A stretch of 64,000 nt of DNA, taken from positions 20,355-84,354 of the forward strand of contig JBPOIU010000031.1 of assembly GCA_052034255.1 (NCBI GenBank), written 5' to 3'. The notes under the pieces were generated by a model. The model searched no databases. It was not told where the DNA came from and worked only from the letters and a program-made list of their open reading frames with translations. The position numbers were made by a program, and so were the translations under genes. Shown one piece after another: positions 629-48,712 of the stretch. This DNA comes from Planctomycetota bacterium (lineage in GTDB: Bacteria > Planctomycetota > B15-G4 > JADJEK01). Each line of letters opens with the position of its first letter. Within the stretch, counting starts at the first letter, position 1.

Positions 629-1678
629 TCAGGCGTGCGCGAACTCGGCGGGTAGCAGGACGGCATGACGCAGCATGCCGGCGCGCGCGAGGTCGAACAG
701 CACGTGGGTCAGGCGCTGGTCGAGGCGGCCGTTCTCGCACTCCTGTTCGAGGACGGCCATCGCGGCGCTCGGTTCCATCGGACTGCGGTACGAACGGTTC
801 GACGTGATCGCATCCCAATAGTCCGCGATGCGCACGATCCGCGCGTCGAGCGGTATCTGCTCGCCCTTCAATCCGTCCGGATATCCCGTGCCGTCGAGGT
901 TCTCGTGGTGCCAACGGATCATCGAGACCACCGGCGCCAAGCACGCGATCGGCTGGCAGAGATCGGCGCCACGTCCCGGGTGTTCCTTCATGATCGCGTA
1001 CTCGTCGGCGGTCAGCGGGCCCGGCTTGTCGAGGATGCAGTCCGGGATGGCGAGTTTGCCGATGTCGTGCAGGCGCGCGCCGAGCGCGATGCGGTCGATC
1101 TCGTCCTTCGACAGACCGATGCGTTCGGACATCAGTGCCGCGATGCGCGAGACGCGGTCGGAGTGCTGGCGCGTGTATCGACTCTTCATGTCGATGATGT
1201 GCGCGAGCGCCAGCATGAACTCCTTCAGGTGCGACTCGTCGGCGTTGCGGCGCTCCTTCAGGCGTTCGAGTTCGAGCGAGCGCCGCTGCAGGTGCTGCTT
1301 CTCGACCACGCGGTGGATCGTCGCCAGCACTTCCTCGAAGCGGAACGGCTTCTTGAAGAAGTCGAACGCGCCGACCTTCAACGACTGGATCGCGAACTCG
1401 AGTTCGAGATGGCCGGTGACCACCGCGACGTCGACGTCCGGGTAGTCGCGGCGCACGTGCGAGAGCAATTCGAGTCCGCCCATGCCCGGCATCGTCAGGT
1501 CCGTCAGGACGAGGAAGAAGCGCTGCTTGCGCAGGCAATCGAGTGCTTCATGGCCATTGCGGGCTTCGACGACGTGCGGGTAACCGCTGGCCCGGACGAA
1601 GCTGGCGAGCGCTTCGCGAATTCCGTCCTCGTCATCGACGATGAGGATTCCGCGCTCCGATGGACGATCTTCGATCAC
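629..1678 (-). CDS. Response regulator with HD-GYP (c-di-GMP phosphodiesterase) output domain, RpfG-like
   Basis: REC domain (ILIVDDE, LTDLTMP, FFKKP), then LHDIGK and HHENLDGTGYPDGL. GTG start at 1678 follows a GGGAGG RBS. Confidence 0.92.
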   Translation of the reverse strand: MIEDRPSERGILIVDDEDGIREALASFVRASGYPHVVEARNGHEALDCLRKQRFFLVLTDLTMPGMGGLELLSHVRRDYPDVDVAVVTGHLELEFAIQSLKVGAFDFFKKPFRFEEVLATIHRVVEKQHLQRRSLELERLKERRNADESHLKEFMLALAHIIDMKSRYTRQHSDRVSRIAALMSERIGLSKDEIDRIALGARLHDIGKLAIPDCILDKPGPLTADEYAIMKEHPGRGADLCQPIACLAPVVSMIRWHHENLDGTGYPDGLKGEQIPLDARIVRIADYWDAITSNRSYRSPMEPSAAMAVLEQECENGRLDQRLTHVLFDLARAGMLRHAVLLPAEFAHA

Positions 1679-1888
1679 GGCGCCCCTCCCAGTCGAAATG
1701 GCCACGCACGGAGTGCGGATGCCTTGTATCGGAGGGGCCGATGTGGCCGGGTGAGTTCTTCCAGGTTTTCCACGCCTTGGTCCACAGGTTGTGCACCGTT
1801 GTGTAACAGCGGTGAAACATCCGCAACGCGGGCAGGAAATGGCTGTTTGCCCCCAGGACTGGGGAACATCGCGTATTCGGAGTGTCGA

Positions 1889-2746: not shown

Positions 2747-4356
2747 CGAATCAGCTTCCAGCGAAAGTGCGGAACGATCGGCCAGAATACCGCCAGTGCT
2801 TTGCCGAGCAGCAACTTGCGCGGCGCGAACCGGAAGCGATCGTCGGCCACTTGGTGGAACGTCGCGTCCGAGCGCTGGCGCAGCCTATACGTCTCGCCGT
2901 AGATGTCGATGAACTGATCCGGCGCGCCGCCCTGCGCGTTGCTGATGTCGCGGTAGGTGCTGGTGCCGTCCGCGAAACGGACTTCTTGCACGTTCCAGTA
3001 CCGGCTGTCGCTGGAGTTCTGCGTGTTGTCGCCGAGCACGAGCAAGCCGTCGTCCGGCACGTCGAACGAGCCGAGCGGCGCGCGTCCCGACTTCGTGTAG
3101 TGGATGTCGCGACGCACGAGGAGGTCCGCGACGCGGGCCGTTCCGCCGACGATCTCGAACTCGATCCCGGACTCCGCGGCCTGAGCCGAGGGCATCTCGT
3201 CGTAGGCGTAGCGCAGCAGCGGATCGCCATCGACGCAGAGCAGCAGTTCCTGATCGACGTGGATGAACTCGACCCGCGACGTGCGTCCCTGGGCCAAGCC
3301 ACTCGTTTTGGCGGTGCCGACGATCGGTGAGCCGCCCGTCCGGCCGACCAACCCGGCGTCGCCACCTCCGAGCACGCCGGACTCGAGTCGGGCTTCGCCG
3401 TCGATGCGCAGGACGGCACGGTGCTCCAGGCCTTGTCCCGCGATCACGACGCGTACGTCGCTGCAGCCCGCATCCGGCGTGACGTCGAACGCGATCGACA
3501 GATCGGCGACGTTGTTCGCACCTTCGGAACCGCTCGCGGAGTGGGCCAGCGGAATGCCCCAGTCCGGGTCGTAGCCGTCGAGGTAGTGGTCACGAATGCC
3601 GTCGCCGTGACCGAAGCGAACGAGCGAGTCCGCGCCCACGGCGACTTCGTCGCCATCCGCCGTAGCTTGCCCGCGCAGCACGTCGAAGGCAGCGGCGAAC
3701 GACTCGCCCTTCACGCCCGACGGATACAGCGTCTTCATGACCGCATCGCGCACGCTCGTCGGCTTGCGCGCGATCTTGAACGGGCCATAGGTCCCGCTCT
3801 CGCCCTTCGTCGCCGTGAAGATGTTGCCGTTCTCGATGGAGATGCGTTCGCCCGGCAACCCGATCAAGCGCTTGATGTAGTTCTTGCTGCGATCGAGCGG
3901 GTACTTGAAGACCACGACGTCGAAGCGCTCGGGCTCGTCGAGCAGGTATGCGAATTTGTTGACGAGTACGCGGTCGTAGATCTGCGCCTCGTCGTTGCCG
4001 AGGATCGTCGGCTGCATCGAGCCGGTCGGGATCTTGTACGCCTCGAGCAGGAAGTGCTTCAGGATCAGCGCCATCACGACCGCGATCGCGAGGCACTCGA
4101 TGTTCTCGGCGACCACGCGGCCCTTGCCGACGCCGAACAGCCAGCCCATCCAACCGAACAGTCCGACGATCGCGAAGCGGCCGTAATGCCAGACCTGCGT
4201 CCGCTTCAGGGCGTCGTCGAGCAGAGGTTCGGCGAACTCCTTGACGCCGTATCCGATCAATACGCCGATCACGAGCATCAACACAGCGGAGGCCGGTACG
4301 TCGTTCGATTCGGGCGGCGTCGAGTGGGGCGTGGCACCGTCGCGTTCGTTCGCCAT
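2743..4356 (-). CDS. lepB: Signal peptidase I with large beta-rich insertion
   Basis: Catalytic Ser (IPTGSMQPT), Lys (YIKRLIG), GDNTQNSSDSRYW and GKALAVFWP. Lies downstream of lepA. Confidence 0.92.
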   Translation of the reverse strand: MANERDGATPHSTPPESNDVPASAVLMLVIGVLIGYGVKEFAEPLLDDALKRTQVWHYGRFAIVGLFGWMGWLFGVGKGRVVAENIECLAIAVVMALILKHFLLEAYKIPTGSMQPTILGNDEAQIYDRVLVNKFAYLLDEPERFDVVVFKYPLDRSKNYIKRLIGLPGERISIENGNIFTATKGESGTYGPFKIARKPTSVRDAVMKTLYPSGVKGESFAAAFDVLRGQATADGDEVAVGADSLVRFGHGDGIRDHYLDGYDPDWGIPLAHSASGSEGANNVADLSIAFDVTPDAGCSDVRVVIAGQGLEHRAVLRIDGEARLESGVLGGGDAGLVGRTGGSPIVGTAKTSGLAQGRTSRVEFIHVDQELLLCVDGDPLLRYAYDEMPSAQAAESGIEFEIVGGTARVADLLVRRDIHYTKSGRAPLGSFDVPDDGLLVLGDNTQNSSDSRYWNVQEVRFADGTSTYRDISNAQGGAPDQFIDIYGETYRLRQRSDATFHQVADDRFRFAPRKLLLGKALAVFWPIVPHFRWKLIR

Positions 4357-4428
4357 GGGTCTCGAGTTTCGTTTCGCGAAAGGGTCAGGAAGCTCTGGTC
4401 CGGACGCGCGAACGCCTGGCGTCCGCCG

Positions 4429-6242
<1,814 letters not shown>

Positions 6243-12058: not shown

Positions 12059-13291
12059 GTGTTCTGGGTTCGACGCGGTCTCGGCCTACCGCGGCTCGGT
12101 GCTCTCCTCATTTCGTGCGTTGCCGCATGTTCGCGTGCGGACGACGCCGCGACTTCGTCGACCGCGGACGTCGACGACTCCCGATTGCGCGAAGCGCCCG
12201 CGTTCCAGCGCGTGAAGTCGAAGGTCGAGAGTCTCGAGCGCCGCATCGCGACTCTGGAGCGCGACGCCGACGCCCGCGTCGACTTGGCGAAGGCCTACCT
12301 GCAAGGCGGGATGCGCGCGCGCGCCGAGGGACATTTGCGCGATGCGCTCGCGCTCGATCCCGACCAAATCGAAGCCCGCATCATCCTGGTCGATCTCGCG
12401 CTCGCGTCCGGGGACGTCGCCGCTGCACGCACTTGGATCGACGCCGGCCTGGCGCGGAAAGAGAGTGTCGCGCTGCTCGTGGCCGACGCCAAGGCCCGCG
12501 TGCTCGCCGATCCGGTGGGGGGACGCGCCGAGGCTCTGCGCGTGCTCCTGCGTGCGTTGGAGATGAAGCCCGATCATCTCGATGCGAACTACGAGGCGGC
12601 CACGTTGCTGCTCGAGAACGGCGACGCCGAAGCCGCGGCGACGCGACTCGAACGCGTCGTCCAAAGCTCCCCGAACCACCTGGGCGCGCAGTTCAAGCTC
12701 GCGCGTGCGTATCGCGCACTTGGTCGACTGGACGACGCCACGCGCGTCACGGCGACGCATCGGCGCCTCGGTCGACTGGACGACCTGGGCATGCTGAGTC
12801 AGGCCGACACACCGGAAGCGTCGCTCGCGTTGGCGGACGTGCTGGAGAAGGGCGGGGATCGGTCCGGTGCGCGGGCCGAGCTCGCACAGGCGCTGGAACG
12901 GTTCCCCGAGCACCCGCACCTGAACACGCGGCTCGCGACCGCATGTGCCTCCGACGGGGATCCGACGGCAGCCCAAGCAGCATTCGAGTCCGCGCTGCGG
13001 CGACTCCCCGACGACGTGGGCGTGTTGACGGAGTACGCGCGCTTCCTCGCGACGGGTCCCGCGGTGACGCGGGATGCTCCGCGGGCGGTGGCGATCGCGC
13101 GTGCCGCGGTCGATCGCACCTCCGGCACGGATGCGGGCACGATCGAAGTGCTGGCGGACGCCTATCTCGCGAATGGCGACACGGCGCGCGCCGTCGCCGC
13201 ATTGCGTGAGGCGGAGCGGCTCGCTCCGAAGAAGGTCGCGCTGGCACGGAAGCGGGAGCGGCTCGAGCGCGATGCCGGAGGTCCACCATGA
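12059..13291 (+). CDS. Tetratricopeptide-repeat (lipo)protein
   Basis: Signal/lipobox-like LLISCVAAC, then repeated TPR helices (ARVDLAKAY, ANYEAATLL, AQFKLARAY). ATGA overlap with the next gene. Confidence 0.75.
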   Translation: MFWVRRGLGLPRLGALLISCVAACSRADDAATSSTADVDDSRLREAPAFQRVKSKVESLERRIATLERDADARVDLAKAYLQGGMRARAEGHLRDALALDPDQIEARIILVDLALASGDVAAARTWIDAGLARKESVALLVADAKARVLADPVGGRAEALRVLLRALEMKPDHLDANYEAATLLLENGDAEAAATRLERVVQSSPNHLGAQFKLARAYRALGRLDDATRVTATHRRLGRLDDLGMLSQADTPEASLALADVLEKGGDRSGARAELAQALERFPEHPHLNTRLATACASDGDPTAAQAAFESALRRLPDDVGVLTEYARFLATGPAVTRDAPRAVAIARAAVDRTSGTDAGTIEVLADAYLANGDTARAVAALREAERLAPKKVALARKRERLERDAGGPP

Positions 13292-14970
13292 GTCCGCTGT
13301 TGCGTGCCTCGGTCGTCGGATGCGCGCTGGGTTTGGCGGGATGCGGAGCGGACTCCGCGCAGCCCGGGCCGTTCTCGTTCGTCGACGTGACGGCGGACAG
13401 TGGGATCGCGTTTCGGCACGCGAACGGAGCGCATGGTCAGCGGCAATTGCCGGAGACGATGGGCGGGTCGGCGGGTTGGTTCGACCTCGAGAACGATGGC
13501 GATTTCGACGTCTTCCTCGGGCAGAGCGGTGAACTCGGGGACGTCCCGCGCGGCGACCAAGGCCGCTCCGCCGTGTTCGTGAACGACGGCGGGACGTTCC
13601 GCGACGAGACCGCTCGTGTCCTTCCGCGCGCCGATCTCGGCTACGGGCAAGGCGTCGCGGTCGGCGACGTGAACGGCGACGGCGACGAGGACCTCTACGT
13701 CACGAACTACGGGCCGAACGTGCTGCTCGCGAATCGATCAGGGACGTTGGTCGACGTGACGTCCACCAGCGGTTGCGGCGATCCGTCGTGGTCCGCGTCC
13801 GCGGTGTTCTTCGACAAGGAAGGTGACGGCGACCTCGATCTCTACGTCACGAACTACGTCGAGTACGACCTCGCGGCCGCATTGGCGATGTCCCCGCGTG
13901 GTGAGGGCTTCGTGGCCTATCCGCATCCGGATCGCTTCCGCGCCGCGCCCGACGTGCTGTACGAGAACGATGGCGCCGGCAACCTGCGCGACGTCACGCA
14001 TGCAGCGGGCATTCATGACGTCGATGGCAAGGGGCTCGGCGTCGTGGCGGCGGACCTCGATCTCGATGGCGATCAGGACCTCTACGTCGCGAACGACTCG
14101 ACGCCGAATTTCTTGTTCCGCAACGAGGGCAACGGCACGTTTCGCGACGTCTCGGGTGACTCGAATGCCGCGTACGACGTCAACGGCCGCACACAAGCCG
14201 GCATGGGAGTCACGGTCGGCGACGCGGACGGTGACGGCCGCTTCGACCTGTTCGTGACCAACCTCGACCAGGAAACGAACACGCTGTACCGCCAGCTCGA
14301 TGCGCTCGTGTTCGAGGACGCGACGCTCCCGCGCGGGCTCGGTGTGGTGTCGCTGCCGTACGTCGGATTCGGCACCACGTTCGTCGATCTCGATCTGGAC
14401 GCGGACGAGGATCTGTTCGTCGCGAACGGTCACATCATCGACAACGTCGAGACGATCCAACCCGGCACGCCGACGACGTTCCGCCAACGTTGCCTGGTGT
14501 TCGAGAACGATGGCCGTGGCGTATTCACCGAACTCGGCCCCCGCGCGGCGCCCGCGCTCGCCGAACCCCGCGTCGCGCGGGCACTGGCGCTGGCCGACGT
14601 CGATGGGGACCTCGATCTCGACGCATTGATCGCGCAGAACGCGGGTCCCGCCGTCTTGCTGCGCAACGACTGCGCGCGCGTGCACCGTCCGCTGCGGGTC
14701 CACGCGGTCGACGCACACGGCGCGCCCGCGCGCGGCGCGGTGGTGGAGGTCGACGTCGACGGCATCGTCCAGCGGCGGATCGTCGGGCATCCGGGCTCGT
14801 ATTGCGCCGCGAACGATCCACGCGCGTTCTTCGCGGTTCCCCACGACCCGCGCAGCGTCGTGATCCGTTGGACGAACGGTCGGCGCACCGAGCTGACGGA
14901 CGTCGCCGCCGGAACCGCGATTCGCGTCCAGCACGATGGGCACTGCGTCGTCGAGCTCCCGGCGCGCTGA
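13288..14970 (+). CDS. CRTAC1-family FG-GAP repeat protein with ASPIC/UnbV-like C-terminus
   Basis: Repeated D-x-D-x-D-G-D-x-D-L-Y-V-x-N motifs; FVDVTADSGI, LPETMGG, ARALALADVDGDLDLD. Confidence 0.88.
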   Translation: MSPLLRASVVGCALGLAGCGADSAQPGPFSFVDVTADSGIAFRHANGAHGQRQLPETMGGSAGWFDLENDGDFDVFLGQSGELGDVPRGDQGRSAVFVNDGGTFRDETARVLPRADLGYGQGVAVGDVNGDGDEDLYVTNYGPNVLLANRSGTLVDVTSTSGCGDPSWSASAVFFDKEGDGDLDLYVTNYVEYDLAAALAMSPRGEGFVAYPHPDRFRAAPDVLYENDGAGNLRDVTHAAGIHDVDGKGLGVVAADLDLDGDQDLYVANDSTPNFLFRNEGNGTFRDVSGDSNAAYDVNGRTQAGMGVTVGDADGDGRFDLFVTNLDQETNTLYRQLDALVFEDATLPRGLGVVSLPYVGFGTTFVDLDLDADEDLFVANGHIIDNVETIQPGTPTTFRQRCLVFENDGRGVFTELGPRAAPALAEPRVARALALADVDGDLDLDALIAQNAGPAVLLRNDCARVHRPLRVHAVDAHGAPARGAVVEVDVDGIVQRRIVGHPGSYCAANDPRAFFAVPHDPRSVVIRWTNGRRTELTDVAAGTAIRVQHDGHCVVELPAR

Positions 14971-15067: not shown

Positions 15068-15946
15068 TCAGGTCAGCAGCTTGCCCCGCACCTTGTCGAG
15101 CTGGACCTTCAGCTTGTTCATGACGTTCGAGTGGATCTGGCAGACGCGCGACTCGGTGAGGTTCAGGATCTCGCCGATCTCTCGCATGGTCAGACCTTCG
15201 TAGTAGTACATGATCACGATCAGCTTCTCCTTGCGGGAGAGCGAGCGCGTGATCGCGTGCATCACGTCCTTCTGGTTCAAGGCGTCGAGCGGATTCGCGC
15301 CCTGCTTGTCCTCGAGCACCTCGATCTTGCTCAACGAGTCGTCGTCGTCGCGCTCGTCCCATTTCTCGGACAGCGAGAAGATCGTGCGGGCCGACGAGGC
15401 CTCTTTGAGGTCGGAGTAGTCGTGGATGGAGATGCCGAGCTTCTTCGCCATCTCGTAGGCGGTCGGCGCGCGACCGAGTTCCATCTCGAGCTGCTGTTCG
15501 GCGCGCGAGATCTGACCGGCCTTGATGCGCACGAGGCGCGGCACCCAGTCCTGCGAGCGCAGCTCGTCGAGGATCGAACCGCGGATGCGGGTCGTGCAGT
15601 AGGTCTTGAACTTGATGCCGCGTTCGAGGTCGAAGCCATCGATCGCGTCCATGAGGCCGAAGACGCCGGCGCTCTGGAGGTCTTCGAGCTCGATGCTCTT
15701 CGGCAGACTCACGAGCAGGCGCTCGGAGATGTAGCGGACGAGCGGCATGTAGCGCTCGATCAGCTGATTGCGGAGCTCCGGCGAGCCCTGCGCCTTGTAT
15801 TGGCGCCAGACGTCGTCGATCTCGCTGTTGTTCGCGGGGGTCTCGCCGTTTTCTTTCACCGGCGTCTCGGTGCGCGTTTGCGCCGGCCGATGGCGAGTGA
15901 GGAACGAGGGGGCGTTGATCTTGGCGCGGGTCGACTCGCGGCTCAT
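15068..15946 (-). CDS. fliA: FliA/WhiG-family (sigma-28) RNA polymerase sigma factor
   Basis: RNQLIERYMPLV, GIKFKTYCTTRIRGSILDELRSQDWVPR, YYYEGLTMREIGEILNLTESRVCQIH. AAGGAG RBS. Confidence 0.93.
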   Translation of the reverse strand: MSRESTRAKINAPSFLTRHRPAQTRTETPVKENGETPANNSEIDDVWRQYKAQGSPELRNQLIERYMPLVRYISERLLVSLPKSIELEDLQSAGVFGLMDAIDGFDLERGIKFKTYCTTRIRGSILDELRSQDWVPRLVRIKAGQISRAEQQLEMELGRAPTAYEMAKKLGISIHDYSDLKEASSARTIFSLSEKWDERDDDDSLSKIEVLEDKQGANPLDALNQKDVMHAITRSLSRKEKLIVIMYYYEGLTMREIGEILNLTESRVCQIHSNVMNKLKVQLDKVRGKLLT

Positions 15947-15995
15947 CGGATCTCCTTTTCGACTCGTCGTGCGGCGTCTCCTCGTCGCGCTCGAG

Positions 15996-16082
15996 TCGGC
16001 AACTGGCTGCCATCCCGCTCCATCGATGAGCGGCTTAGGCCCTGAAGCTTTGCGTCCCTCCCTTTCGGGAGGTTTGCCCTTG
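15996..16082 (-). ncRNA. Cyclic di-GMP-I (GEMM-I) riboswitch in the fliA 5' leader
   Basis: Minus strand reads AAGGGCAAACC-UCCC-GAAA-GGGA-GGGACGCAAAGC-UUCAGGGCCUAAG-CCGCUC...GAGCGG-GAUGGCAGCCAGUUGCCGA. This shows a GNRA-capped P2, the GACGCAAAG junction, the CUAA...AUG receptor and the UUGCCGA end. Confidence 0.93.
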
Positions 16083-16126
16083 GACGGTGGCCGTCACACG
16101 GCGCAGCGGCGTTCGTCCAGGCGCAG

Positions 16127-16153
16127 AGTGTACCGGCGGTAGTCTCGGGTCAA
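16127..16153 (-). promoter_or_regulatory. Sigma70-like promoter for the riboswitch-fliA transcript (TTGACC-N15-TACACT)
   Basis: Good -35 and -10 hexamers about 45 nt upstream of the aptamer; the spacer is shorter than canonical. Confidence 0.5.
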
Positions 16154-16362
16154 GCTGGAAAATGTCAGCTTATACACTTTATTCGGACATGACCGTTTGG
16201 GCTTGAGGAGAAGCTGTGAAAAGCCGGGCTGCATCGGTGGAGAAGGCGTGAATGGCCGGTGGGCGGGAAGTTTGGCCGCGTGGAACGAGGGGCCTGCAAC
16301 GCGCGCGGGGCGCCCGGCGATGCCGGACGCCCCGCGCTTTGGTCGATTGGAGGAGCCGTCGC

Positions 16363-16887
16363 TCAGGGAGTCGGGACGGGCTTCAACGTGCGTCCGCGCG
16401 ACAACTTGAGGAAGTCGGCCGCGAACTCGACGAACTGTTCTTCGACGAAGCGGCTGAACCCGGAGAGATCGGCGGTGCCGTAGTCGACCGAGTAGGTGGA
16501 CGAATCGCGGTCGCCGTTGATCACCGTCTTCTTGACGTGCACCTGGATCGCGCCGGCGTCGGGCTGGATCTCGAGCAGGAACGTCAAGCGCGAGAAGAAC
16601 TTGCCGAGATGGCCTTGAGCGTCGAACAGCACTTCGTCGCAGTGCAGTTCGATGCGGTACTTGCCCTCGAAGAACGACTTGGTCCGGACGAAGCCGACGA
16701 CCTCGCCGCTGAACTTCTGGGCGTACTCGTCGATCACGTGCTCGAGCTGCTCGCGCCGTTCGAGGCGGAGTTCGACCGCGGACGCTCGGGCGAGTTCGCG
16801 CTCGGCCTCGGCCGCGCGGGCCTGGCGCTGAGCTTGATCTTGCTCTTCGCGAATCTGGCGCAGGCGATCCTGGAAATCCGTGACCAT
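16363..16887 (-). CDS. Hypothetical protein, N-terminal coiled coil plus alpha/beta domain
   Basis: GGAG RBS before ATG 16887; typical codon pattern; charged helical N-terminus (LRQIREEQDQAQRQ). Confidence 0.75.
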   Translation of the reverse strand: MVTDFQDRLRQIREEQDQAQRQARAAEAERELARASAVELRLERREQLEHVIDEYAQKFSGEVVGFVRTKSFFEGKYRIELHCDEVLFDAQGHLGKFFSRLTFLLEIQPDAGAIQVHVKKTVINGDRDSSTYSVDYGTADLSGFSRFVEEQFVEFAADFLKLSRGRTLKPVPTP

Positions 16888-17068: not shown

Positions 17069-17887
17069 TCAAGGATCGTCACCCGACTTCGAAGGAGTCT
17101 TGTCGTCCTTGATCTTGCGGACTGACGACGATTGGCGCACGAGTTCGAGGCGCTCCACGCGCGCGCGCGCGAGCTTCGCCGAGCCGCTCGTGCCTTGGAA
17201 ACGCGCCATGGCGTCGTCGATCGTCGTCAGCGCGGCGGTCGGATCGGAAGCCGCCAACGCCGCCGCTTGATCGACGACTTGATCGGCGGCGCGCTCCGAA
17301 GCCGACTGCAGTTCCGTCAACAGTAGTTCGATGTCGGAGCGATCGTCCGGCGATCGCTCACGCTCGATGCCCTGCAAGTAATCGAGGGCGGCCGTGAACT
17401 CGCCGCGCCCGACGATCTCGCGCGCGATCGCCGCCTGGCGTCCACGTGCTTCTTGCCAACGCGCCTGGCACGTCACGCGGACTTCGTCCTGGAGTTCCCG
17501 GAACTCGCGTTCGAACGGGCCTCCGACGAAGCGTGCGGCCTGTTCCGCGGCGATCGCGTCGAGCGCCGCGAGCGAGTGCGATCCCACGCGCTCCGACAGG
17601 GACTCGAGCAACTTCCTGCCATGGTCCCGTGCGGCCAGCGCCGCCTCGCAGCGCGCCTGCCCGAGTTCCGCGCGCGCCCGCGTCTCGCGCGTCGGAGCGT
17701 CGTCCGAGAGCGCGCGCCAATCGCGCGCCGCCGACTCGATCGCGCCCGAGCGCTCCGCGTGCTCGATCGCATCGGCCGCTTTGGTGAACGAGCGCTCGGC
17801 CTCGGAGCCCTCGGAACAGCCGAGGACGAGGCCGAGCGTCAAGCAAGCAACGCAGCGCGAAGCGACTCGAAGCGCGAACACGTTCAA
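17069..17887 (-). CDS. Hypothetical all-helical lipoprotein
   Basis: Lipobox-like LGLVLGC; TTG start overlaps the apt stop; TPR-like helices. Confidence 0.65.
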   Translation of the reverse strand: MNVFALRVASRCVACLTLGLVLGCSEGSEAERSFTKAADAIEHAERSGAIESAARDWRALSDDAPTRETRARAELGQARCEAALAARDHGRKLLESLSERVGSHSLAALDAIAAEQAARFVGGPFEREFRELQDEVRVTCQARWQEARGRQAAIAREIVGRGEFTAALDYLQGIERERSPDDRSDIELLLTELQSASERAADQVVDQAAALAASDPTAALTTIDDAMARFQGTSGSAKLARARVERLELVRQSSSVRKIKDDKTPSKSGDDP

Positions 17888-18399
17888 TACTGCAGCAGGG
17901 AGTGCACGTCGAGGCCGCGGAGCTTCTCGCGTCCGTTCAACAGCTTCAATTCGATCACGACCAGGCCGGCGAGCGGTTCGCCGCCGACCGCGCGCACGAG
18001 CTTCGCCGCGGCGGCCATCGTGCCGCCGGTCGCGAGCAGGTCGTCGACGATCGCGACGCGCTCACCGGGCGCGACGGCATCGCGGTGCATTTCGATCGCG
18101 TCGGTGCCGTACTCGAGCGAGTACGACTCACGGACCGTCTGGTAGGGGAGCTTGCCCGGCTTGCGGACCGGGACGAAGCCGAGGCCCATCTGGTGCGCGA
18201 GCGCGGTCCCGAAGATGAAGCCGCGCGACTCGATGCCGACGATCTTCGTGACGTTCTTGCCGGCGAGCAGATCCGCGAGCTTGCGGACCGTGAGGCGCAA
18301 GCCCTCGCCACTGCCGAGCAGCGGGGTCACGTCCTTGAACAGGATCCCCTTCTTGGGGAAGTCGGGGATGTCGCGGATCAGCTTCTTCAGTTCGTCCAT
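17884..18399 (-). CDS. apt: Adenine phosphoribosyltransferase
   Basis: IRDIPDFPKKGILFKD, GIESRGF, RKPGKLP, YSLEYG, IVDDLLATGGT. Confidence 0.97.
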   Translation of the reverse strand: MDELKKLIRDIPDFPKKGILFKDVTPLLGSGEGLRLTVRKLADLLAGKNVTKIVGIESRGFIFGTALAHQMGLGFVPVRKPGKLPYQTVRESYSLEYGTDAIEMHRDAVAPGERVAIVDDLLATGGTMAAAAKLVRAVGGEPLAGLVVIELKLLNGREKLRGLDVHSLLQY

Positions 18400-18403
18400 G
18401 ACT

Positions 18404-20119
18404 TCACATCTCCTCCAAGGCTTCGAGTCCGAGGACCGCGAGGCCATTCTTCAGCACGATCTGCGCGGCGCGCACCAGCGCGAGCCGAGCCTCGGACGTG
18501 GCAGGTTCTTCGCCGAGGATTCGGCATTCGATGTAGAAGCGGTTGAGGATCGCGCCCAGTTCGAGCAAATAGTCCGCGACGAACGACGGTTCGCAGGCGT
18601 CCGCCGCTCGGGTCAGAACGCCGCGGAAGTCCGACATCTTGCGGACCATTTCGCGTTCGACGTCGGTCCCTAGGCGCGCGAAGTCGGCACGCGCGAGCTC
18701 TGCGTCCGATTTCGCGCCGGCCTTGCGCAGGACGCTCGCGATGCGGGCGTAGCAGTACTGCACGTACGGACCGGTTTCGCCTTCGAACGCGAGCACCTCG
18801 TTCCAATCGAACACGATGTCGCGCACGCGGCGGTTCTTGAGGTCGTTGAACACGACGGCCCCGACGCCGATCGCTTTCGCGACGGCCGCGTCTTGCGCGA
18901 GGGCGGGGTTCTTCTCGGCGACGATCGCTTGGGCCCGCGCGACGGCTTGGGTCAGCACGTCCTCGAGCAGGAGGATGTCGCCGCTGCGGGTCGACATCTT
19001 GCGGTCCTTGAACCGCATCATGCCGAACGGCACGTGGACGACGCCGCTCGCGAACTCGCGGCCGAGCAGCTGCAGCACGCGGACCAGTTGCTGGAAGTGC
19101 AGCGATTGTGCGCCGCCGACCACGTACAGCGCCTTGGTGAAGCCGTACGTCGCGTGGCGATACATCGCCGCCGCGAGGTCACGCGTGACGTAGAGGCTCG
19201 AGTCGTCGGCCTTCTGGATCAAGCAGATGCCGAGTCCGTCGGCGCTGAGATCGACGATGCGCGCGTCGCGACTCTCCTGGAGCAGGCCCTTCGCGGCGAG
19301 CTCCGCGACCACCGGCGCCATCTTGTCCTCGAAGAACGACTCGCCGGTGAACGCGTCGAACTGGATGCCGAGCAAGTCGTAGATGCGCCGGAACTCCGCT
19401 TCGCTGACGTCGCGGAAACGCTTCCACAGCCGCCGCGCTTCCGGATCGCCGCGCTCGAGTTCCGCGAAGGCGCGGCGTGCGTCGTCGCGCAGACCGGGAT
19501 TCGTCGCGAGCTCCTGGTTGAACGCGACGTAGAGCTCGAGCAGGTACGGGATGCCCTCGGCGTCGAGCCGCGCCTCGTTGCCGTGACGGCGCCACGCCGT
19601 GATCAATTGGCCGAACTGCGTGCCCCAATCGCCGAGGTGATTGATGCCGACCACGCGGTACCCGAGCCGCCGATGGAGCCGCGCGATCGCGGCGCCGATG
19701 ACGGTGGAGCGCAGATGGTGGATGCCGAACGGCTTCGCGATGTTCGGGGACGAGAAGTCGACGACGACCGTCTTGCCCGCGCCGAGGTCGCTGTCGCCGT
19801 AGCGATCGCCCTCGCCGAGGATCGCTTGCAGTGTGGAGCCGACGAATGCGCCACGGTCGAGCGTGAAGTTCACGTACGGGCCGACGGCGCGCACGGACTC
19901 GAAGCCCGCTCCGCGCGCCAAGGGGGCGAGGGAGCCCGCGAGTTCGGTCGCGATCGCGACCGGGCTCTGTCGACGCTCTTTCGCGAGTTGGAAGCACGGC
20001 AGCGCGTAGTCGCCGAGCTTGGCTTCCTTGGGCGTTTCGATCCACGCGAGCGCTTGCGCTTCCGGGCAGGAAAGCGCCTGTGCCACCAGCTTCGCGATCG
20101 TGCTCTTGTGCTCGTCCAT
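18404..20119 (-). CDS. argS: Arginine--tRNA ligase
   Basis: DFSSPNIAKPFGIHHLRST (HIGH-like), NHLGDWGTQFG, KMSTRSG, FEGETGPYVQY. Confidence 0.97.
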   Translation of the reverse strand: MDEHKSTIAKLVAQALSCPEAQALAWIETPKEAKLGDYALPCFQLAKERRQSPVAIATELAGSLAPLARGAGFESVRAVGPYVNFTLDRGAFVGSTLQAILGEGDRYGDSDLGAGKTVVVDFSSPNIAKPFGIHHLRSTVIGAAIARLHRRLGYRVVGINHLGDWGTQFGQLITAWRRHGNEARLDAEGIPYLLELYVAFNQELATNPGLRDDARRAFAELERGDPEARRLWKRFRDVSEAEFRRIYDLLGIQFDAFTGESFFEDKMAPVVAELAAKGLLQESRDARIVDLSADGLGICLIQKADDSSLYVTRDLAAAMYRHATYGFTKALYVVGGAQSLHFQQLVRVLQLLGREFASGVVHVPFGMMRFKDRKMSTRSGDILLLEDVLTQAVARAQAIVAEKNPALAQDAAVAKAIGVGAVVFNDLKNRRVRDIVFDWNEVLAFEGETGPYVQYCYARIASVLRKAGAKSDAELARADFARLGTDVEREMVRKMSDFRGVLTRAADACEPSFVADYLLELGAILNRFYIECRILGEEPATSEARLALVRAAQIVLKNGLAVLGLEALEEM

Positions 20120-20926: not shown

Positions 20927-23074
20927 TCACGGCAGCGGACCACCATCGTTGCCGACGACGATCGCGATCGCCCACAGTTGGGGATGTGCGGTATCGGTCG
21001 CGGCGAATCCTCGGGGGAAGCGCGGCCGGGCCGTGCCGTCCAGCCAATCGAGGGACGCGGCGCGCGCAGCGTCGGCCGCGGGCAGGTTCGCGCCGTGGCG
21101 ATGGAAGGCCGCCATCCACGCGGCGCCCGCACGGTCGTCGACCGGTCGCAGCGTGGAGATGACGCAGGACGCGCCGCGGAACAGGAACGCGCGCCACAGA
21201 CCGAGCATGCCTTCGCCCGGCCGCAGCGGTCCGAGCGCCGTGCCGCACCCGGAGAGCACGACGCGAACGCCGGGAGTCAACGGCAGCGGGTCGTCGGCGC
21301 CCGCGACACGCTCGAGATCCAATCGACCATCCAGGCCCGCGCCCGGCGCAAGGCGCAGCACGGCGCGGCGTTGATCCGCGCGTGTCCATTCCGCGTGACA
21401 CGCGAGATGCAGCCAACCCGTCGGCGCCCGGCGCAACGCCGCCCGCAGGCGCGGCAACGTCGCCATCGGACCTTCGAGGATCTCGCAATCCCGATGCGCT
21501 TTGCACAGCGCGGTCGCCTCGCCCCGCGCGTGGACCAGACGCGGGAGTCGCGCGTCGTCGAGTTGCGGGTCCAGCACCGCCACCGCGCGATCGGCCGCGT
21601 TCGGCGCGGGGAGCGCGCGCAGCGTCGACAGCGCCGGAACGCGCAGCACGCTGGTGGAACGGACGACGTACGGGAGCGCGGCGAACGACGCCGCGGTCGT
21701 GGGTGCGGTGACCAAGGCCTCGAACGGGATCCCCTCGAGCGGGCCATTCACGAGCAGGACGAGGCGCCGTGGCGCCACGGCGGGGTCGGCGAACGCGTCG
21801 GCCACCGGACCGCAGAGCGACGCGAACAACGCGAAGGCATCGCGCGCGTAGTCCGCCGCGGCGCCGCGCAGGCCGTCGGGAGCGAACCACTGCTCGAGGA
21901 AGCGATCGGCCACCGCTTCGATCGCGTCGCACCGACCGAGACTCCGCAGCGCGAATCGTTCGCGATGGCGGTACATCACGACCAGTTCAGCGGGGGAGTC
22001 GTGCGGCACGGCGCAGAAGAGCCGTAATCGCGCGACGTCCGCATCGACTTCCGGAGTCGTCGTCGCACGCTCGATTCCCCGCGCGGCGTTCGAGCGGCGC
22101 AACGCGGTCGACAGCGTGGTCGCCTGCAGGTGGTCGACGACCGTCTCGGCGAGCGCGAGCGCGCGTTCCTCGTCGGCGGGACGACGCATCGCGAGATGCG
22201 CCAGCTCGAGGACGAGGTCGCTTTGCAACCGCTGCGCGCGATCGGACCAGAACAACATGTCGTTCAACGTGAGGCCGGCCTGGAGGCCGGCGTCGAGCGC
22301 GCGCTGCCGTTCGAACGTGGATTCCGCGAGGTCGAGATCGTCGCAGCGCACCGCCAACACCGCGGCGAGATGGACGCTGTCCCGAAGTTCGGGGAGCAGG
22401 CCCGCGTCGGCGATGCGTTCGAGTTCCGCCTGGTGGCGCGCGAGCACGCGCAGCGCGAGCCGGGGATCACCGGCGACCGCGAGGTTCGTCGCGCGCCGCC
22501 GCAAACACCGAGCTGCCGAGCGCGCCTCGCCGAGTGCGCGGAACACCGCCTCCGCGGCACGGAAATCGCCATCGGCGGCGTGGACCGCGCGCAGCCTCGT
22601 GCGCACGTTGCCGCGCCATTCCAGGCGGATCGCGCGCTGCAACGAGGTAGCCCCTTCGAGCGACGCTCCGTACAGCGCTTCCGCCGCCGACAGCGCGGCG
22701 CGCTGTCGCTCTGCGTCCTGCTGCGGTCGTGAGCGCTGGAACTCCGCACGAGCGAACGCGACCTCGCCCGCGAACGTCGCGTCGACCGGGAGCGCCGCGA
22801 GCGCTGCATCGAGTTCCGCCGCGACGTCGAACCGGCCGCGCCATACCGCCGCGCGCAGACGCAAGCCGAGGAGTCGCCGCGCGAGCGGATCCGCCGCGTC
22901 GAACTCCATGTGCTCGAGCGTGGAGAGATCGGATTGCGCCGCGTCGAGATCGCCGCGATCGAGCGCCGCCGCCACGCGGTCGAGGACCGCCCCCGCCTCG
23001 GGCGGGCGCGGTTCGGCGCGGATCGCGCCTGCGATCAGCCACACGGCGAAGATCACGCGAGCGAACGTGCCCAT
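20927..23074 (-). CDS. Secreted TPR-like + CHAT (caspase-like) protease
   Basis: Signal-like MGTFARVIFAVWLIAGAIRA; helical repeats; catalytic His (LHLACHA) and Cys (VVLSGCGT); HPQLWA C-terminal motif. Confidence 0.85.
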   Translation of the reverse strand: MGTFARVIFAVWLIAGAIRAEPRPPEAGAVLDRVAAALDRGDLDAAQSDLSTLEHMEFDAADPLARRLLGLRLRAAVWRGRFDVAAELDAALAALPVDATFAGEVAFARAEFQRSRPQQDAERQRAALSAAEALYGASLEGATSLQRAIRLEWRGNVRTRLRAVHAADGDFRAAEAVFRALGEARSAARCLRRRATNLAVAGDPRLALRVLARHQAELERIADAGLLPELRDSVHLAAVLAVRCDDLDLAESTFERQRALDAGLQAGLTLNDMLFWSDRAQRLQSDLVLELAHLAMRRPADEERALALAETVVDHLQATTLSTALRRSNAARGIERATTTPEVDADVARLRLFCAVPHDSPAELVVMYRHRERFALRSLGRCDAIEAVADRFLEQWFAPDGLRGAAADYARDAFALFASLCGPVADAFADPAVAPRRLVLLVNGPLEGIPFEALVTAPTTAASFAALPYVVRSTSVLRVPALSTLRALPAPNAADRAVAVLDPQLDDARLPRLVHARGEATALCKAHRDCEILEGPMATLPRLRAALRRAPTGWLHLACHAEWTRADQRRAVLRLAPGAGLDGRLDLERVAGADDPLPLTPGVRVVLSGCGTALGPLRPGEGMLGLWRAFLFRGASCVISTLRPVDDRAGAAWMAAFHRHGANLPAADAARAASLDWLDGTARPRFPRGFAATDTAHPQLWAIAIVVGNDGGPLP

Positions 23075-23133
23075 GGAAGTCCCGCATGCGCGCGGAACCA
23101 GCGCGAGGACGCGCCGGTCTGGTGAGGCCGAGC

Positions 23134-23160
23134 ACATGAATCCATCGGGTGGATTCATGT
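23134..23160. terminator. Perfect 11-bp inverted repeat between the aminotransferase stop and the CHAT gene (terminator or operator)
   Basis: acatgaatcca-tcggg-tggattcatgt. Confidence 0.55.
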
Positions 23161-41283: not shown

Positions 41284-43773
41284 TCAATCGTCCGCTCCGC
41301 TGACTTGCAGCTGCGCCCAGAAGTACGGATGATCGAAACGACTCTCGGTCGCCAGGTGATCGCGCGCCGCGCGCATCGCCTCGGCGACCGAGGCGCGTTC
41401 GCGAAGGGCCGGCGCGATTCCCTCGACGATTCGCAGACTCGACTCGAGATCGGCTGGGCCGACGGCGAGCACGACGGTGCGGGCACCCGCGCAATGCAGA
41501 GCGCCGCCGAGCAGGTTCAAGCCGTCGTCGCCGGCGCGACGCGGCCCACGCGCCGCACCGCAGGCGAGCAGCACGACGGTGCGCGCCGGTGAACAGGCCT
41601 CGGCGTCGTCAGTCGTGAACGTGGACGCGTCTGGTGAGTCGCCCGCACACGCGAGCACGACCGGGCGGACGCGCCGAAGATCCAGAGTTCCATGCGCGAT
41701 GACGATCTGCGCGGTCGCGCGCGAGCCGTCGTATGCGCGCAGAGCGACGGCCGTCGCGTCGTCTCCCGCGATCAACGCGGCGTCGAGCTGCTTCGCGATC
41801 GCGCCGAGCCGATCGCGGTCGACGTCGAACGGGACCACGCGCGAGTCCTGAGCGCTGAACGGCTTCGCCGGGTCGGTTGCAGCGAACACCAGTCCGCTGC
41901 GCGTGCCCTCGTGTCGAGTTCGCGTCGCCACGTAGGCCGCGATCGGGACCGACGCGACGTGGCGAATGGCGTGCGAGCGGCCGAGGGCCCGATCACCGAC
42001 GATGCATGCTTCGAGCGGGATCGTCCCGATCACGTCCGCGCCGCAGGCCACGACCCGCTTCCACGTCGCCATGCGACGGGCGATGGGTTCGGGGAAGAAC
42101 GCGTTCCCCAACGCCCGCTGTCGCGACGTCACCGCGCGCGTCGCGGCGGACGACACCGCGCCGTCCGCGGCTCGCGCCGGACGTGACGAGCAGTGCTCGA
42201 ACAGCGCGGCCGCGGCGTCCGCGAGCTCGGAGCTGTCGGGAATCGGCGCGAGCGCCAGACCCTGCGCGTCGATCGCGAACACGTAACCGTTGCGGCGCGG
42301 AGCCGGTAAGAACAGGACGAGGCCTTCGTCCGGGAGGAGGACGCGCGACCGGATGTCGGCGAGCGTTCCGCAGCGTGCACCGACGCGGCGCGCGAAGGTC
42401 CCGGCCTCCTGCCCGGTAAGCAGGAGTTCGAGCGCATGCTCGGCTCCGCGCTCCGGATCCTGGCGCAGCGTGGCTTCGATCCACGAGGCGTACGCCGCGC
42501 GCACGGTCGGGAAGTAGAGCGGACCGGCTCCGGTGTCGACGGCACCGACTCGGCCGAAGATCGCAATGCGGTCGAGGATCGCGGTCTTCAGTTCAGCGTT
42601 GGCCGCGGCCAACGACGCCGCCGTCGTCTCCGTTTCGAGGCGCAGCAATGCTTCGACATGGAAACCGAGCAGCTCGAGCACACGCAATCCGGATCCGGGC
42701 ATCGAGCTCGACGACATCGACGTCAATCGCGCGAGTTCGTCGTATGCGCCGGCTCCGAGCAGGAGGCTCGCCAGATGGACTCGCGCGCGCGCGCGATTCT
42801 CGGCGCTGAGCCCGTCGTCCTCGCTCGCTCGCCGCAAGACCTGGATCGACACCGCCGGTTCCCACGCGCGGGGATCGGATCCGCGGCGCGTCGATGCCAG
42901 CGCACGCCGGAACTCGAGCGGTGAAATCGGGTCGCCCGCCGCCTCCGCGCGCTCGATCGCGTCGAACGCGGTCGCCTGATCACCGGCAGCGGTCGCCGCG
43001 TCGATCTCCATCAAGCGCAGATTGCAGTGATTCGCCGCAAACCGAATCGGGTCGAGGCCCGTGGCGGCCACGCGGGCCTGCCGCGTCCAGTACCCCATCC
43101 GATCGGGTTGCCCGAGATCCTCGGCGAGCTGAACCCGCTCCTCGAACAGACCGAACCACTGCGCCCGTGTCCATGCGTCGTTCTCGGCGCACTCCTCGAG
43201 CGGGACGAGCAGCGCTTCGCAGCGCGCGCCGATCGCGTCGAGCCGATCGAGTGCGCCGCACAGGCGCAATGCGCGATGCAACTTCGTCAACGCGAACGGC
43301 ACGGATTGCGCGCGCCGTGCTTCGAGTTCACGGATTCGATCGTCCAGAATCCGATCGACGTCCGCGGCGCGGCCGGCCCGGATCAGCTCCTCGGCCAGCA
43401 GAGCCGCGAAGAACGACGCGCCGTCCGCGTGTCCCGCGCGAAGGACCTCAGTCGTGGTCCGGTCGAGGATCGAAATCAATCGAGCGCTGTCGAGTCGTGT
43501 CGGTCCGTCGTCCTGGAACAGCGCGCGCGCCGCGGATCCCAAGCGCTTCGCGTCCGCGAGGTCGATCGCTGCGCCGGAATCGATCCGACCGATGATCGCC
43601 TCATAGGTGGCGAGCGGAGGGTCTTCGGCTCCGCTTCGAACCGCGGTGGACGCGATCGTCATCGCGGATCCGACTCGAGAATTCGCGGCAGCGAACGCCG
43701 CAATCAGCGCCAGGACGATGCGGACGCCGAGTCGAGAGGTTGTCCCGTCGAATCGAGCCACGTCACACGCCAT
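41284..43773 (-). CDS. Helical-repeat + CHAT (caspase-like) protease, probably exported
   Basis: IVIAHG (His), VVLLACG (Cys), HPYFWAQL. Hydrophobic IVLALIAAFAAA near the N-terminus. Start uncertain. Confidence 0.85.
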   Translation of the reverse strand: MACDVARFDGTTSRLGVRIVLALIAAFAAANSRVGSAMTIASTAVRSGAEDPPLATYEAIIGRIDSGAAIDLADAKRLGSAARALFQDDGPTRLDSARLISILDRTTTEVLRAGHADGASFFAALLAEELIRAGRAADVDRILDDRIRELEARRAQSVPFALTKLHRALRLCGALDRLDAIGARCEALLVPLEECAENDAWTRAQWFGLFEERVQLAEDLGQPDRMGYWTRQARVAATGLDPIRFAANHCNLRLMEIDAATAAGDQATAFDAIERAEAAGDPISPLEFRRALASTRRGSDPRAWEPAVSIQVLRRASEDDGLSAENRARARVHLASLLLGAGAYDELARLTSMSSSSMPGSGLRVLELLGFHVEALLRLETETTAASLAAANAELKTAILDRIAIFGRVGAVDTGAGPLYFPTVRAAYASWIEATLRQDPERGAEHALELLLTGQEAGTFARRVGARCGTLADIRSRVLLPDEGLVLFLPAPRRNGYVFAIDAQGLALAPIPDSSELADAAAALFEHCSSRPARAADGAVSSAATRAVTSRQRALGNAFFPEPIARRMATWKRVVACGADVIGTIPLEACIVGDRALGRSHAIRHVASVPIAAYVATRTRHEGTRSGLVFAATDPAKPFSAQDSRVVPFDVDRDRLGAIAKQLDAALIAGDDATAVALRAYDGSRATAQIVIAHGTLDLRRVRPVVLACAGDSPDASTFTTDDAEACSPARTVVLLACGAARGPRRAGDDGLNLLGGALHCAGARTVVLAVGPADLESSLRIVEGIAPALRERASVAEAMRAARDHLATESRFDHPYFWAQLQVSGADD

Positions 43774-47446: not shown

Positions 47447-48712
47447 TCAGGCGACCGCGGGAGCGCGCGCTTCGTTTCGCGTCGCCTCGAACAACGGCCA
47501 AGGCGTGAAGCCGAACGCGCGCGCGAGCAGCGAGCGCGGAAACGTCGCGATCGTCGTGTTGAACTCGGTCGCGCAGTCGTCGAAGAACGTGCGGTCGTGC
47601 GCGATCTTGTCCTCGAGCGCGACGAGTTGGTCGTGCAACTTCGCGTACGCGGTGGACGCGCGCAGCTCCGGGTACTTCTCGGCGAGCGCGAGCACCTGCG
47701 CGACGGAGCCGCGGATCGACGTTTCGGCGCGGATCGCCGCACGCGCGTCCTGCGCCGCCGTGCGCAGGCGCGACAGTTCCTCGAACGTCGTGCGCTCGTG
47801 CGCCGCGGTGGCCGCGACGATCGTCGCGAGGCGCGGCACCAGATCGAAGCGCTGCTTCAGATCGACGTCGATGTGCCGCCATGCCGCGAGCGTGCGGGTG
47901 CGGTACGCGATCAGCGTGTTGTACGCGTGCATGACCCAGGTCCCGAGCGTGACGAGCGCGGCGATCGTTGTCGCGACGACCGCGAACTTCGGCACGAACA
48001 CAGGGTCGACGTAGGAACCCTGGACGTGCATCCACCCGCCGTAGGCTCCCGCGAGCACGCCGAGGAACAGCAGCGCGAAACCGAAGCGGCGCAGCCAACG
48101 TTCGCCGGTCTCCGCGCCGCGGAGGAACGCGTCGCGCGTGCGCCGACAGAGCAAGAGCGGGATGTTGGCGTGCGCTTCGAGTCCGTGGCCGTCTTCCGTG
48201 ACGCAACCGAGCGCGCTGCGCTCGTCGGCGAGCGGCACGTACGCCGCGCTGTAGCGCCGACTCCATTCGTGGTCGTAACCGCTGGACTCGAGGTCGTGCA
48301 GATCGGCGCCCGTGGGGTCGATTCGAAGGCGGTGGTCGCCCTCGACCAAGTCGAACGGCACGCCTTGGACGTCGCGTTGCACGACCGCCCAGTACGTCTC
48401 GGTGCGCGTTCCGCCCTTCGACGTGCGGACGGTGCGCGTGCGCTTCTCCTCGACCAGGTACTCGAAGTACACGCATCGCGCACCGAAGCGCGGCACGGTG
48501 ATCGGTGCCGCGCATTCGACGACGCCGCGGACCCAGGCGTCGTCGCGCGCGGTCAGCAACCGGATCGGCAACTGCGGCGCGCGGGCGTAGATCCAGTTGC
48601 GGGCGTCGGCGCGACGAGCACCGATCAACAATGCGATCGCGATCGCCGTCACGATGCCGCATGCGACGAGGCACGGCACCACCGCGGGGTTTTGCAGCGC
48701 GAGTTCGATCAT
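47447..48712 (-). CDS. GIDE-like domain fused to LemA domain
   Basis: N-terminal TM, VRGVVEC...CVYFEYLVEE...PFDL region, two TMs, then LemA motifs AYNTL, WRHIDVDLKQRFDLVPRL, AEKYPEL, LEDKIAHDRTFF, FPRSLLA. Confidence 0.75.
   Translation of the reverse strand: MIELALQNPAVVPCLVACGIVTAIAIALLIGARRADARNWIYARAPQLPIRLLTARDDAWVRGVVECAAPITVPRFGARCVYFEYLVEEKRTRTVRTSKGGTRTETYWAVVQRDVQGVPFDLVEGDHRLRIDPTGADLHDLESSGYDHEWSRRYSAAYVPLADERSALGCVTEDGHGLEAHANIPLLLCRRTRDAFLRGAETGERWLRRFGFALLFLGVLAGAYGGWMHVQGSYVDPVFVPKFAVVATTIAALVTLGTWVMHAYNTLIAYRTRTLAAWRHIDVDLKQRFDLVPRLATIVAATAAHERTTFEELSRLRTAAQDARAAIRAETSIRGSVAQVLALAEKYPELRASTAYAKLHDQLVALEDKIAHDRTFFDDCATEFNTTIATFPRSLLARAFGFTPWPLFEATRNEARAPAVA

Follow-up and report, generated by a model that had tools for sequence, protein, structure and literature searches.

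A conserved c-di-GMP-I riboswitch very probably acts on the gene of a FliA/WhiG-family sigma factor in Planctomycetota

Cyclic di-GMP (c-di-GMP) usually reaches flagellar gene expression through the proteins FleQ, FlrA, YcgR and RsiG. Among its RNA receptors, Vc2 lies upstream of tfoY in Vibrio cholerae, lacks a terminator and is regarded as a translational switch, its target being a regulator of motility and type VI secretion and not a sigma factor. In Streptomyces, c-di-GMP controls the sigma factor WhiG through the anti-sigma factor RsiG (PMC7005675; PDB 6PFV/6PFJ). Control of a sigma-28 regulon by a riboswitch has a precedent in Cd1 of Clostridioides difficile, a c-di-GMP-I OFF switch in the leader of the early flagellar flgB operon; by prematurely ending the operon transcript it reduces sigD, a gene of the same operon (PMC5386303). 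The GEMM RNAs, to which these riboswitches belong, are common in certain orders of 'Plantomycetes' and have been linked to flagellar, pilus and chemotaxis genes (Weinberg et al. 2007, PMC1950547); the table of recurrent gene families in that paper lists no sigma factor, and neither an association with fliA nor its breadth is described there. Here we describe a 64,000-nucleotide (nt) stretch of a Planctomycetota genome (contig JBPOIU010000031.1, positions 20,355 to 84,354; hereafter the window), in which a c-di-GMP-I aptamer stands in the leader of a fliA/whiG-family sigma factor gene (fliA below). We regard it as highly probable that this element is a genuine c-di-GMP riboswitch acting on fliA.

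Among all Rfam models, only the c-di-GMP-I family RF01051 matched anywhere in the window, and it did so over its full length (model positions 1-87 of 87) on the minus strand at 16088-15995, with 76.1 bits against a gathering score of 35 bits and an E value of 3.7e-13. A first-pass annotation, made by reading the sequence, had placed a complete GEMM-I aptamer at 15996-16082 and had named a covariance-model search as its check; the search returned a significant match and extended the element slightly at both ends. The two-hairpin fold of the class is present, with one helix capped by a GNRA tetraloop (CCUCCC-GAAA-GGGAGG), a junction of the conserved type GGCAAAC...GACGCAAA, and, in the other helix, P3, the tetraloop receptor CCUAAG...GAUGG. 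Position numbers for the binding pocket follow the Vc2 structures. On this numbering, alignment to the model sets G20 at 16078, on the model's conserved unpaired G, A47 at A 16051, directly after GACGC, and C92 at C 15999, the first C of the CCG tail, and all three ligand contacts (G/A/C) are of the c-di-GMP type. G19 corresponds to 16079, C93 to 15998 and the 3' strand of the closing helix P1 (GAC) to 15997-15995. The aptamer lies upstream of fliA on the same strand, its tail 48 nt from the ATG. By score, fold, pocket, cis position and the competing expression platform described below, this aptamer is a full member of the c-di-GMP-I class and is predicted to bind the ligand accordingly.

A survey of fliA leaders across the phylum, as the first-pass annotation had proposed, covered 80 species-representative genome loci and 80 metagenome loci encoding FliA relatives. 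Rfam detected an aptamer of the c-di-GMP-I class upstream of fliA, on the same strand, at 58 of the 80 genome loci, and a covariance model that we built from the orthologous leaders and applied to the metagenome contigs was positive at 44 of 80, so that the pairing of aptamer and fliA orthologue recurs at 102 of 160 related loci. The Rfam-negative genome loci were not matched by our own covariance model, including with its filters off; replacement by another riboswitch class was rejected, as no Rfam family of any kind matched at the aptamer-less fliA loci. Among loci with at least 400 nt of upstream DNA, the aptamer was found at 72/82 where FliA identity to the window protein was at least 60%, at 29/47 between 55 and 59%, and at 1/17 below 55%. 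Across 57 aligned fliA leaders, neither the G20 column nor the CGCAAA block varies. The aptamer helices covary strongly, with 84.7% of cells paired compared with 71.5% in shuffles; compensatory changes occur at each of the six pairs of the tetraloop helix, and shifting the partners out of register drops pairing to 29-44%. At about 100 loci, the conserved aptamer is always on the strand of fliA, after the promoter and before the start codon.

In the window, the aptamer is preceded by a sigma-70-like promoter (Table 1) that a simple consensus promoter scan missed; when close relatives are aligned, little of the upstream sequence is conserved apart from its boxes and a few other columns. Of 16 related leaders, 13 have a TTGnnn-15/16-TAnnnT box whose end lies 40-48 nt from the aptamer core, usually with a T-rich tract upstream; such tracts stand at the place that matches the A+T-rich tract of the window. 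Transcription would likely start at about 16121-16119, upstream of the aptamer, giving fliA a predicted 5' untranslated region (UTR) of about 175 nt. The annotated placement of the aptamer between a promoter and the fliA ribosome-binding site (RBS) was therefore confirmed, with a promoter that is conserved in relatives.

Downstream of the aptamer, its tail CGACUCG pairs with CGAGUCG just before the RBS, a pairing that the first-pass annotation had noted and that proved both exact and part of a larger conserved hairpin. The inner stem occupies 15990-15969 with the loop AGGAGA (15982-15977), and the hairpin stops 2 nt before the Shine-Dalgarno sequence (SD) of the window. This hairpin is the lowest-energy fold of the 44-nt segment UGCCG..UCGAA (about 16001-15958), at -18 kcal/mol (z -2.2), and reaches -16.5 kcal/mol for 15998-15960 alone. 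It takes up C93 and GAC (15997-15995), the partners of G19 and GUC (16085-16083) in P1, and because C93 and the 3' strand of P1 are shared with the aptamer, it excludes the ligand-competent fold. For every one of the nine members of a short-leader set (window, L001, L081, L002, L003, L082, L083, L084 and L085), the fold of lowest energy is a two-tier hairpin of this kind, which runs from the tail and stops 2-8 nt short of the SD, with energies of -12.9 to -27.7 kcal/mol and z scores of -0.6 to -4.4. In all nine the tail stands 48-53 nt from the AUG and the protein begins with M-x-R-D/E. The sequence of the inner stem varies by lineage, and the outer stem consists of the tail and its downstream complement. 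Each of the nine short leaders thus has the competing platform expected of a riboswitch.

At the other end of the leader, the unconstrained lowest-energy fold contains a 5' helix, UGGACG/CGUCCA, which sequesters the P1 5' strand GUC (16085-16083) and in which one pair covaries (A-U in the window, G-C in L001, G.U in L081). The first-pass annotation had suggested that a GACGG (16095-16091)/CCGUC (16087-16083) hairpin competes with P1. These sequences are present, within the span of the UGGACG/CGUCCA helix, but the hairpin is weak (-4.9 kcal/mol) and is not kept in the two nearest relatives, L001 and L081; it was rejected as a conserved competitor, and the longer helix takes its place. The whole leader folds to -73.2 kcal/mol in the tail-hairpin state compared with -58.4 kcal/mol when P1 is forced, so that the ligand-bound fold must be trapped during transcription. 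Slow, kinetically controlled ligand binding, which would match such trapping, was reportedly observed for Vc2 by Smith et al. in 2009.

Two further sequences in this region were considered. A second CGAGUCG copy in fliA codons 3-5 (15938-15932) was rejected as a partner of the tail, being present in L001, absent in L081 and probably a coincidence of codons. The loop of the inner hairpin resembles an SD (AGGAGA, 15977-15982); it lies 12 nt past the tail and has no start codon behind it, and the same loop position reads GGAGAG in L081 and AGGGAAAG in L001. It may be a relic of an architecture in which the SD abuts P1, or a decoy.

Other lineages join the same aptamer to fliA by different platforms. 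In an SD-adjacent group of about 15 relatives (L046, L048, L050, L055, L060, L070, L109, L113, L120, L126, L130 and L134-L137), a gap of 0-5 nt separates the P1 3' strand (ACGAC/CGAC) from the SD that follows, or the two overlap, and an extra hairpin sets the P1 5' strand (GUCGU) apart from the aptamer core. In L050, L130, L135 and L137, a run of pyrimidines in the 5' flank can base-pair with the SD, which lengthens P1. Read from these sequences, a ligand-stabilised P1 would occlude the SD in this group, an OFF design. A third group has long leaders, mostly of 230-390 nt, with an exact CUCCAG 50-130 nt past the aptamer and a CUGGAG SD before the AUG at 16 loci (L012, L016, L024, L025, L029, L030, L034, L040, L041, L045, L051, L065, L111, L112, L119 and L123); the tail-to-SD distance is about 140 nt in L041, L111, L112, L119 and L123. 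Long leaders also share a CUGGAG SD placed before AUGGCCAAGUCC, the blocks GGGAAGGGAA/CUUCCCUUCCC, and a GGCUCCC 5' flank that faces a downstream GGAGCC, which suggests a large structured 5' UTR with a putative long-range anti-SD design based on CUCCAG. The AUG found in the P1 3' strand of many long leaders (CGAAAUGAAGC) was rejected as a start codon or upstream open reading frame (ORF), since it is not conserved (CUG, ACG and GGA occur instead) and the frames are inconsistent.

With moderate confidence we favour an explanation in which c-di-GMP represses fliA translation in the window. Without ligand, the P1 5' strand would be held in the UGGACG/CGUCCA helix and the P1 3' strand in the tail hairpin. 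Binding of c-di-GMP during transcription would lock P1 and the tail into the aptamer, so that the tail hairpin could no longer form and its 3' half would be freed beside the RBS. The output would be the initiation of fliA translation, with secondary effects on mRNA stability or Rho possible, and c-di-GMP would lower FliA synthesis and turn off a sigma-28-type regulon, presumably late flagellar and motility genes, as the cell becomes sessile. No terminator-like site was found on the coding strand of the leader, and Cd1-type transcription attenuation was dropped in the absence of an intrinsic terminator after the aptamer. For this reason translation initiation is the most likely output, and we consider a mainly translational effect fairly probable; the first-pass annotation had likewise thought translational control probable, with which this absence is compatible. 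An OFF switch is, in our estimate, the reasonably probable direction, because the SD-adjacent relatives show an OFF design and because every c-di-GMP input into a flagellar sigma factor that has been characterised acts as an inhibitor (PMC5386303, PMC7005675). In L001 and L081, the freed hairpin strand also matches the AUG-proximal region better than shuffles do (z -3.6 and -1.9), which speaks for the same sign.

Several observations weigh against this explanation. P1 of the window is short, consisting of G19-C93 plus GUC (16085-16083)/GAC. In two-state folding, SD accessibility in the window was 0.67-0.72 in the tail-free state and 0.67-0.85 in the tail-locked state, and across the nine short leaders the change in SD/AUG accessibility between states was small and inconsistent. 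The sign of control was sought with full-leader ensembles in which the aptamer was masked, with sub-sequence folds from varied starts after the tail, and with duplex energies compared with shuffles. Apart from L001 and L081, none of the nine has a freed hairpin strand whose complementarity to the RBS region exceeds that of shuffles; the freed strand of the window is no more complementary to its RBS region than chance (z -1.07), and no anti-SD sequence was found in the window leader. Sequence and folding therefore give no consistent sign of control across the nine short leaders. RNAduplex pairings of 5' flanks with 3' leaders are read as individual cases only, as they yield long and probably spurious duplexes in G+C-rich RNA. 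The 64 kb holds no flagellar genes among the ORFs scanned, so a flagellar role of the sigma factor is presumed from its family membership, and among solved structures the protein is slightly closer to WhiG than to E. coli FliA. Finally, ten loci with at least 60% FliA identity carry no aptamer, including L087 and L094 (69-74%), and therefore the control must be dispensable in some lineages.

The same riboswitch could act with the opposite sign, the ligand-free tail hairpin hindering the 30S subunit and c-di-GMP turning translation of fliA/whiG ON, a reading that we judge unlikely. The ligand-free hairpin is the only conserved structured element that touches the RBS region, no sequence that could serve as an anti-SD in the bound state was found in the window, and locking the tail slightly raises SD accessibility (0.84 vs 0.72). 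An ON switch would make sense if the sigma factor, like WhiG, served a sessile or developmental programme and not swimming; its score against WhiG is 219 bits, compared with 179 bits against E. coli FliA. A free SD, however, is not usually blocked strongly by a hairpin upstream of it, P1 or its extension overlaps the SD in the SD-adjacent relatives, and the known c-di-GMP inputs into flagellar sigma factors inhibit. ON-type GEMM-I switches do exist, for example with a terminator-overlap design (PMC1950547).

It is rather improbable that the riboswitch acts mainly on the fate of the transcript, either by termination through Rho, within the leader or the first part of the coding sequence, or by decay that depends on the 5' end, in which case P1 formation would open the 5'-terminal helix 16119-16114/16086-16081. 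This helix starts at about the predicted 5' end of the transcript and competes with P1, the SD is not clearly masked in either folded state, and the genome is G+C-rich with a leader devoid of U-tract terminators, all of which such a mechanism would accommodate. No C-rich unstructured, rut-like tract is evident, however, and in nine relatives the SD keeps a short, conserved spacing to the platform hairpin, while in about 15 others it stands right against P1, a placement that indicates the ribosome as the target.

That the aptamer senses another ligand, either 3',3'-cyclic GMP-AMP (3',3'-cGAMP), as GEMM-Ib RNAs do, or the ligand of the GGC variant, is highly improbable. The first-pass annotation had argued for c-di-GMP over 3',3'-cGAMP from the G at the Vc2 G20-equivalent position, and this argument held. 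Kellenberger and Nelson, both in 2015, are said to have found that cGAMP-selective GEMM-Ib RNAs carry A at position 20. The window has G at 16078, and it shares G20 and CGCAAA with all 57 aligned leaders. Rfam does file ten orthologous leaders (L007, L011, L018, L019, L028, L033, L052, L057, L058 and L064) under RF03167, c-di-GMP-I-GGC, a family defined by G at the A47 position (GACGC-G-AA). All ten nevertheless carry A at this defining position (GACGC-A-AA), as does the window (GACGCAAA), and a change of ligand in these orthologues was rejected. The ten are ordinary c-di-GMP-I aptamers, for which RF03167 seems to win only because its model includes a P1 (cacg...cgaag) similar to that of these leaders, and automated annotation would mislabel them. 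A chance match or decaying relic without regulatory role, which the missing aptamer in the fairly close relatives L087 and L094 might suggest, is barely conceivable given the E value of 3.7e-13, the compensatory changes and the constant placement on the fliA strand in about 100 loci.

Table 1. Features of the fliA locus, in window positions
Feature	Positions	Strand	Basis
fliA/whiG-family sigma factor gene, 292 amino acids (aa)	15068..15946	-	TIGR02479; Pfam Sigma70_r2, r3, r4
RBS AAGGAG (15957-15952) and start codon ATG (15946-15944)	15944..15957	-	read from sequence
Platform hairpin, tail CGACUCG (15998-15992)/CGAGUCG (15966-15960)	15960..15998	-	exact 7-bp complement; lowest-energy fold
c-di-GMP-I (GEMM-I) aptamer	15995..16088	-	RF01051, 76.1 bits; helix covariation across 57 fliA leaders
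5' leader helix UGGACG (16119-16114)/CGUCCA (16086-16081)	16081..16119	-	unconstrained lowest-energy fold
Sigma-70-like promoter, -35 TTGACC (16153-16148), 15-nt spacer, -10 TACACT (16132-16127)	16127..16153	-	read from sequence and conservation
A+T-rich tract GAATAAAGTGTATAAGCTGACATTTT upstream of -35, putatively UP-element-like	16159..16184	-	partly conserved alignment block

The 292-aa product of the gene under this leader scores 253.2 bits against TIGR02479 (FliA_WhiG; cut-off 189.6), and Pfam finds sigma-70 regions 2, 3 and 4 and, as is typical of the FliA/WhiG family, no region 1. At the finer level it reaches 285 bits on the WhiG equivalog NF004935, below the cut-off of 343, and likewise stays below the cut-off of the FliA equivalog. 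Its closest relatives of solved structure are WhiG (6PFV/6PFJ, E 7e-64) and E. coli FliA (6PMI). As a member of the FliA/WhiG family, it would be expected to direct transcription of late flagellar and motility genes from promoters of the TAAA-N15-GCCGATAA type. The nearest FliA relatives all come from Planctomycetota metagenome-assembled genomes, some of them labelled Phycisphaeraceae or Phycisphaerales, which makes the source bacterium Phycisphaerae-like, and the window itself has a G+C content of 68%.

The gene order leading to the locus is argS (18404-20119), apt (17884-18447), a 272-aa ORF, a 174/193-aa ORF (16363-16887/16944), the riboswitch and fliA. The next gene downstream, of the FG-GAP/ASPIC type (13288-14970, plus strand), is convergent, so fliA is apparently monocistronic. 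Pfam scans of the ORFs chosen as likely genes in the 64 kb found no flagellar, chemotaxis, FlgM-like or RsiG-like gene, in line with the earlier remark that no flagellar or anti-sigma gene adjoins fliA. A response regulator with an HD_5/HD-GYP-type domain is encoded at 629-1705 (minus strand); it scores 208 bits on a 'response regulator c-di-GMP phosphodiesterase' model, under that model's cut-off, and is a candidate c-di-GMP phosphodiesterase, which would place c-di-GMP turnover genes nearby and speaks for the use of c-di-GMP by this organism.

The 174-aa conserved hypothetical protein directly upstream of the riboswitch and fliA (16363-16887, minus strand; start MVTDFQDRLRQ, with the ORF open to 16944) is syntenic with fliA in 37 related loci. 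Its AlphaFold model (mean predicted local distance difference test score, 83.6) combines an N-terminal helix of 60 residues with a sheet of five strands and a C-terminal helix. No PDB chain was similar to it at E values up to 0.2, and the AlphaFold model had no significant fold match in the PDB. It was rejected as an anti-sigma factor or c-di-GMP receptor, having no Pfam or NCBIfam match and homologues that are all hypothetical.

The order argS-apt-(variable small genes)-fliA, at 17069-20119 (minus strand) in the window, is kept in 91 related Planctomycetota loci. In a clade that lacks the aptamer (L066-L068, for example), hardly any intergenic sequence separates apt from the fliA gene that comes after it. 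In other lineages, the gene 3' of fliA on the same strand encodes an HDOD protein (L012, L015, L021 and L027, at about 3800-4850) or a single-domain CheY-like receiver (L016 and L035, at about 3960-4380); neither is found downstream of fliA in the window. Elsewhere the window encodes two large CHAT-domain (caspase-like) proteins (20927-23158 and 41284-43773, both on the minus strand) and a LemA-domain protein (47447-48775).

A single locus of this kind would amount to routine annotation, as any Rfam-based pipeline would flag the aptamer. The canonical c-di-GMP-I class is known; its fliA target appears to be undescribed and widely conserved in Planctomycetota, and we found no description of a c-di-GMP riboswitch directly on fliA/whiG, or of phylum-wide conservation, in the full-text literature, a coverage that leaves out many subscription papers. 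Across much of the phylum, c-di-GMP appears to address the gene of the sigma factor directly. The life cycle of Planctomycetota alternates between a sessile mother and a swimming daughter cell, its regulation is poorly understood and its genetics are hard; a short and self-contained leader is suited to the direct study of how c-di-GMP and motility are coupled in these bacteria. We propose tentatively, as a possibility somewhat short of even, that a single riboswitch RNA serves as a master switch between swimmer and sessile (daughter and mother) states in much of the phylum, with at least three platforms on one orthologous gene. If so, the SD that abuts P1, the tail hairpin of about 50 nt and the CUCCAG leader of 230-390 nt would form a natural series for the evolution of riboswitch platforms, and the hundred-odd orthologous leaders in three architectures offer a comparative set for riboswitch mechanism and evolution.

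In summary, the locus can be set beside three described systems. It shares with Cd1 the aptamer class, the ligand and an output that includes a sigma-28-type factor, so that a regulon would follow c-di-GMP through one RNA. Cd1, from Bacillota, is located some 500 nt ahead of flgB and acts by premature intrinsic termination, sigD being a distant gene of a long operon, whereas the aptamer of the window, from Planctomycetota, stands 48 nt from the start of a monocistronic fliA, has no terminator and probably acts on translation. With Vc2 it has in common the GAAA tetraloop, a receptor of the CCUAAG/GAUGG type, the AGGGC junction with G19/G20 and the CCGA tail; the downstream gene and the expression platform differ. 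As in the RsiG-WhiG system of Streptomyces, c-di-GMP would control a sigma factor of the FliA/WhiG family, and the window protein is, among proteins of solved structure, most similar to the WhiG chains of that system. There, however, the sigma factor is sequestered at the protein level, whereas no RsiG-like protein was detected beside fliA in the window and control is predicted to lie in the leader RNA of the sigma factor gene.

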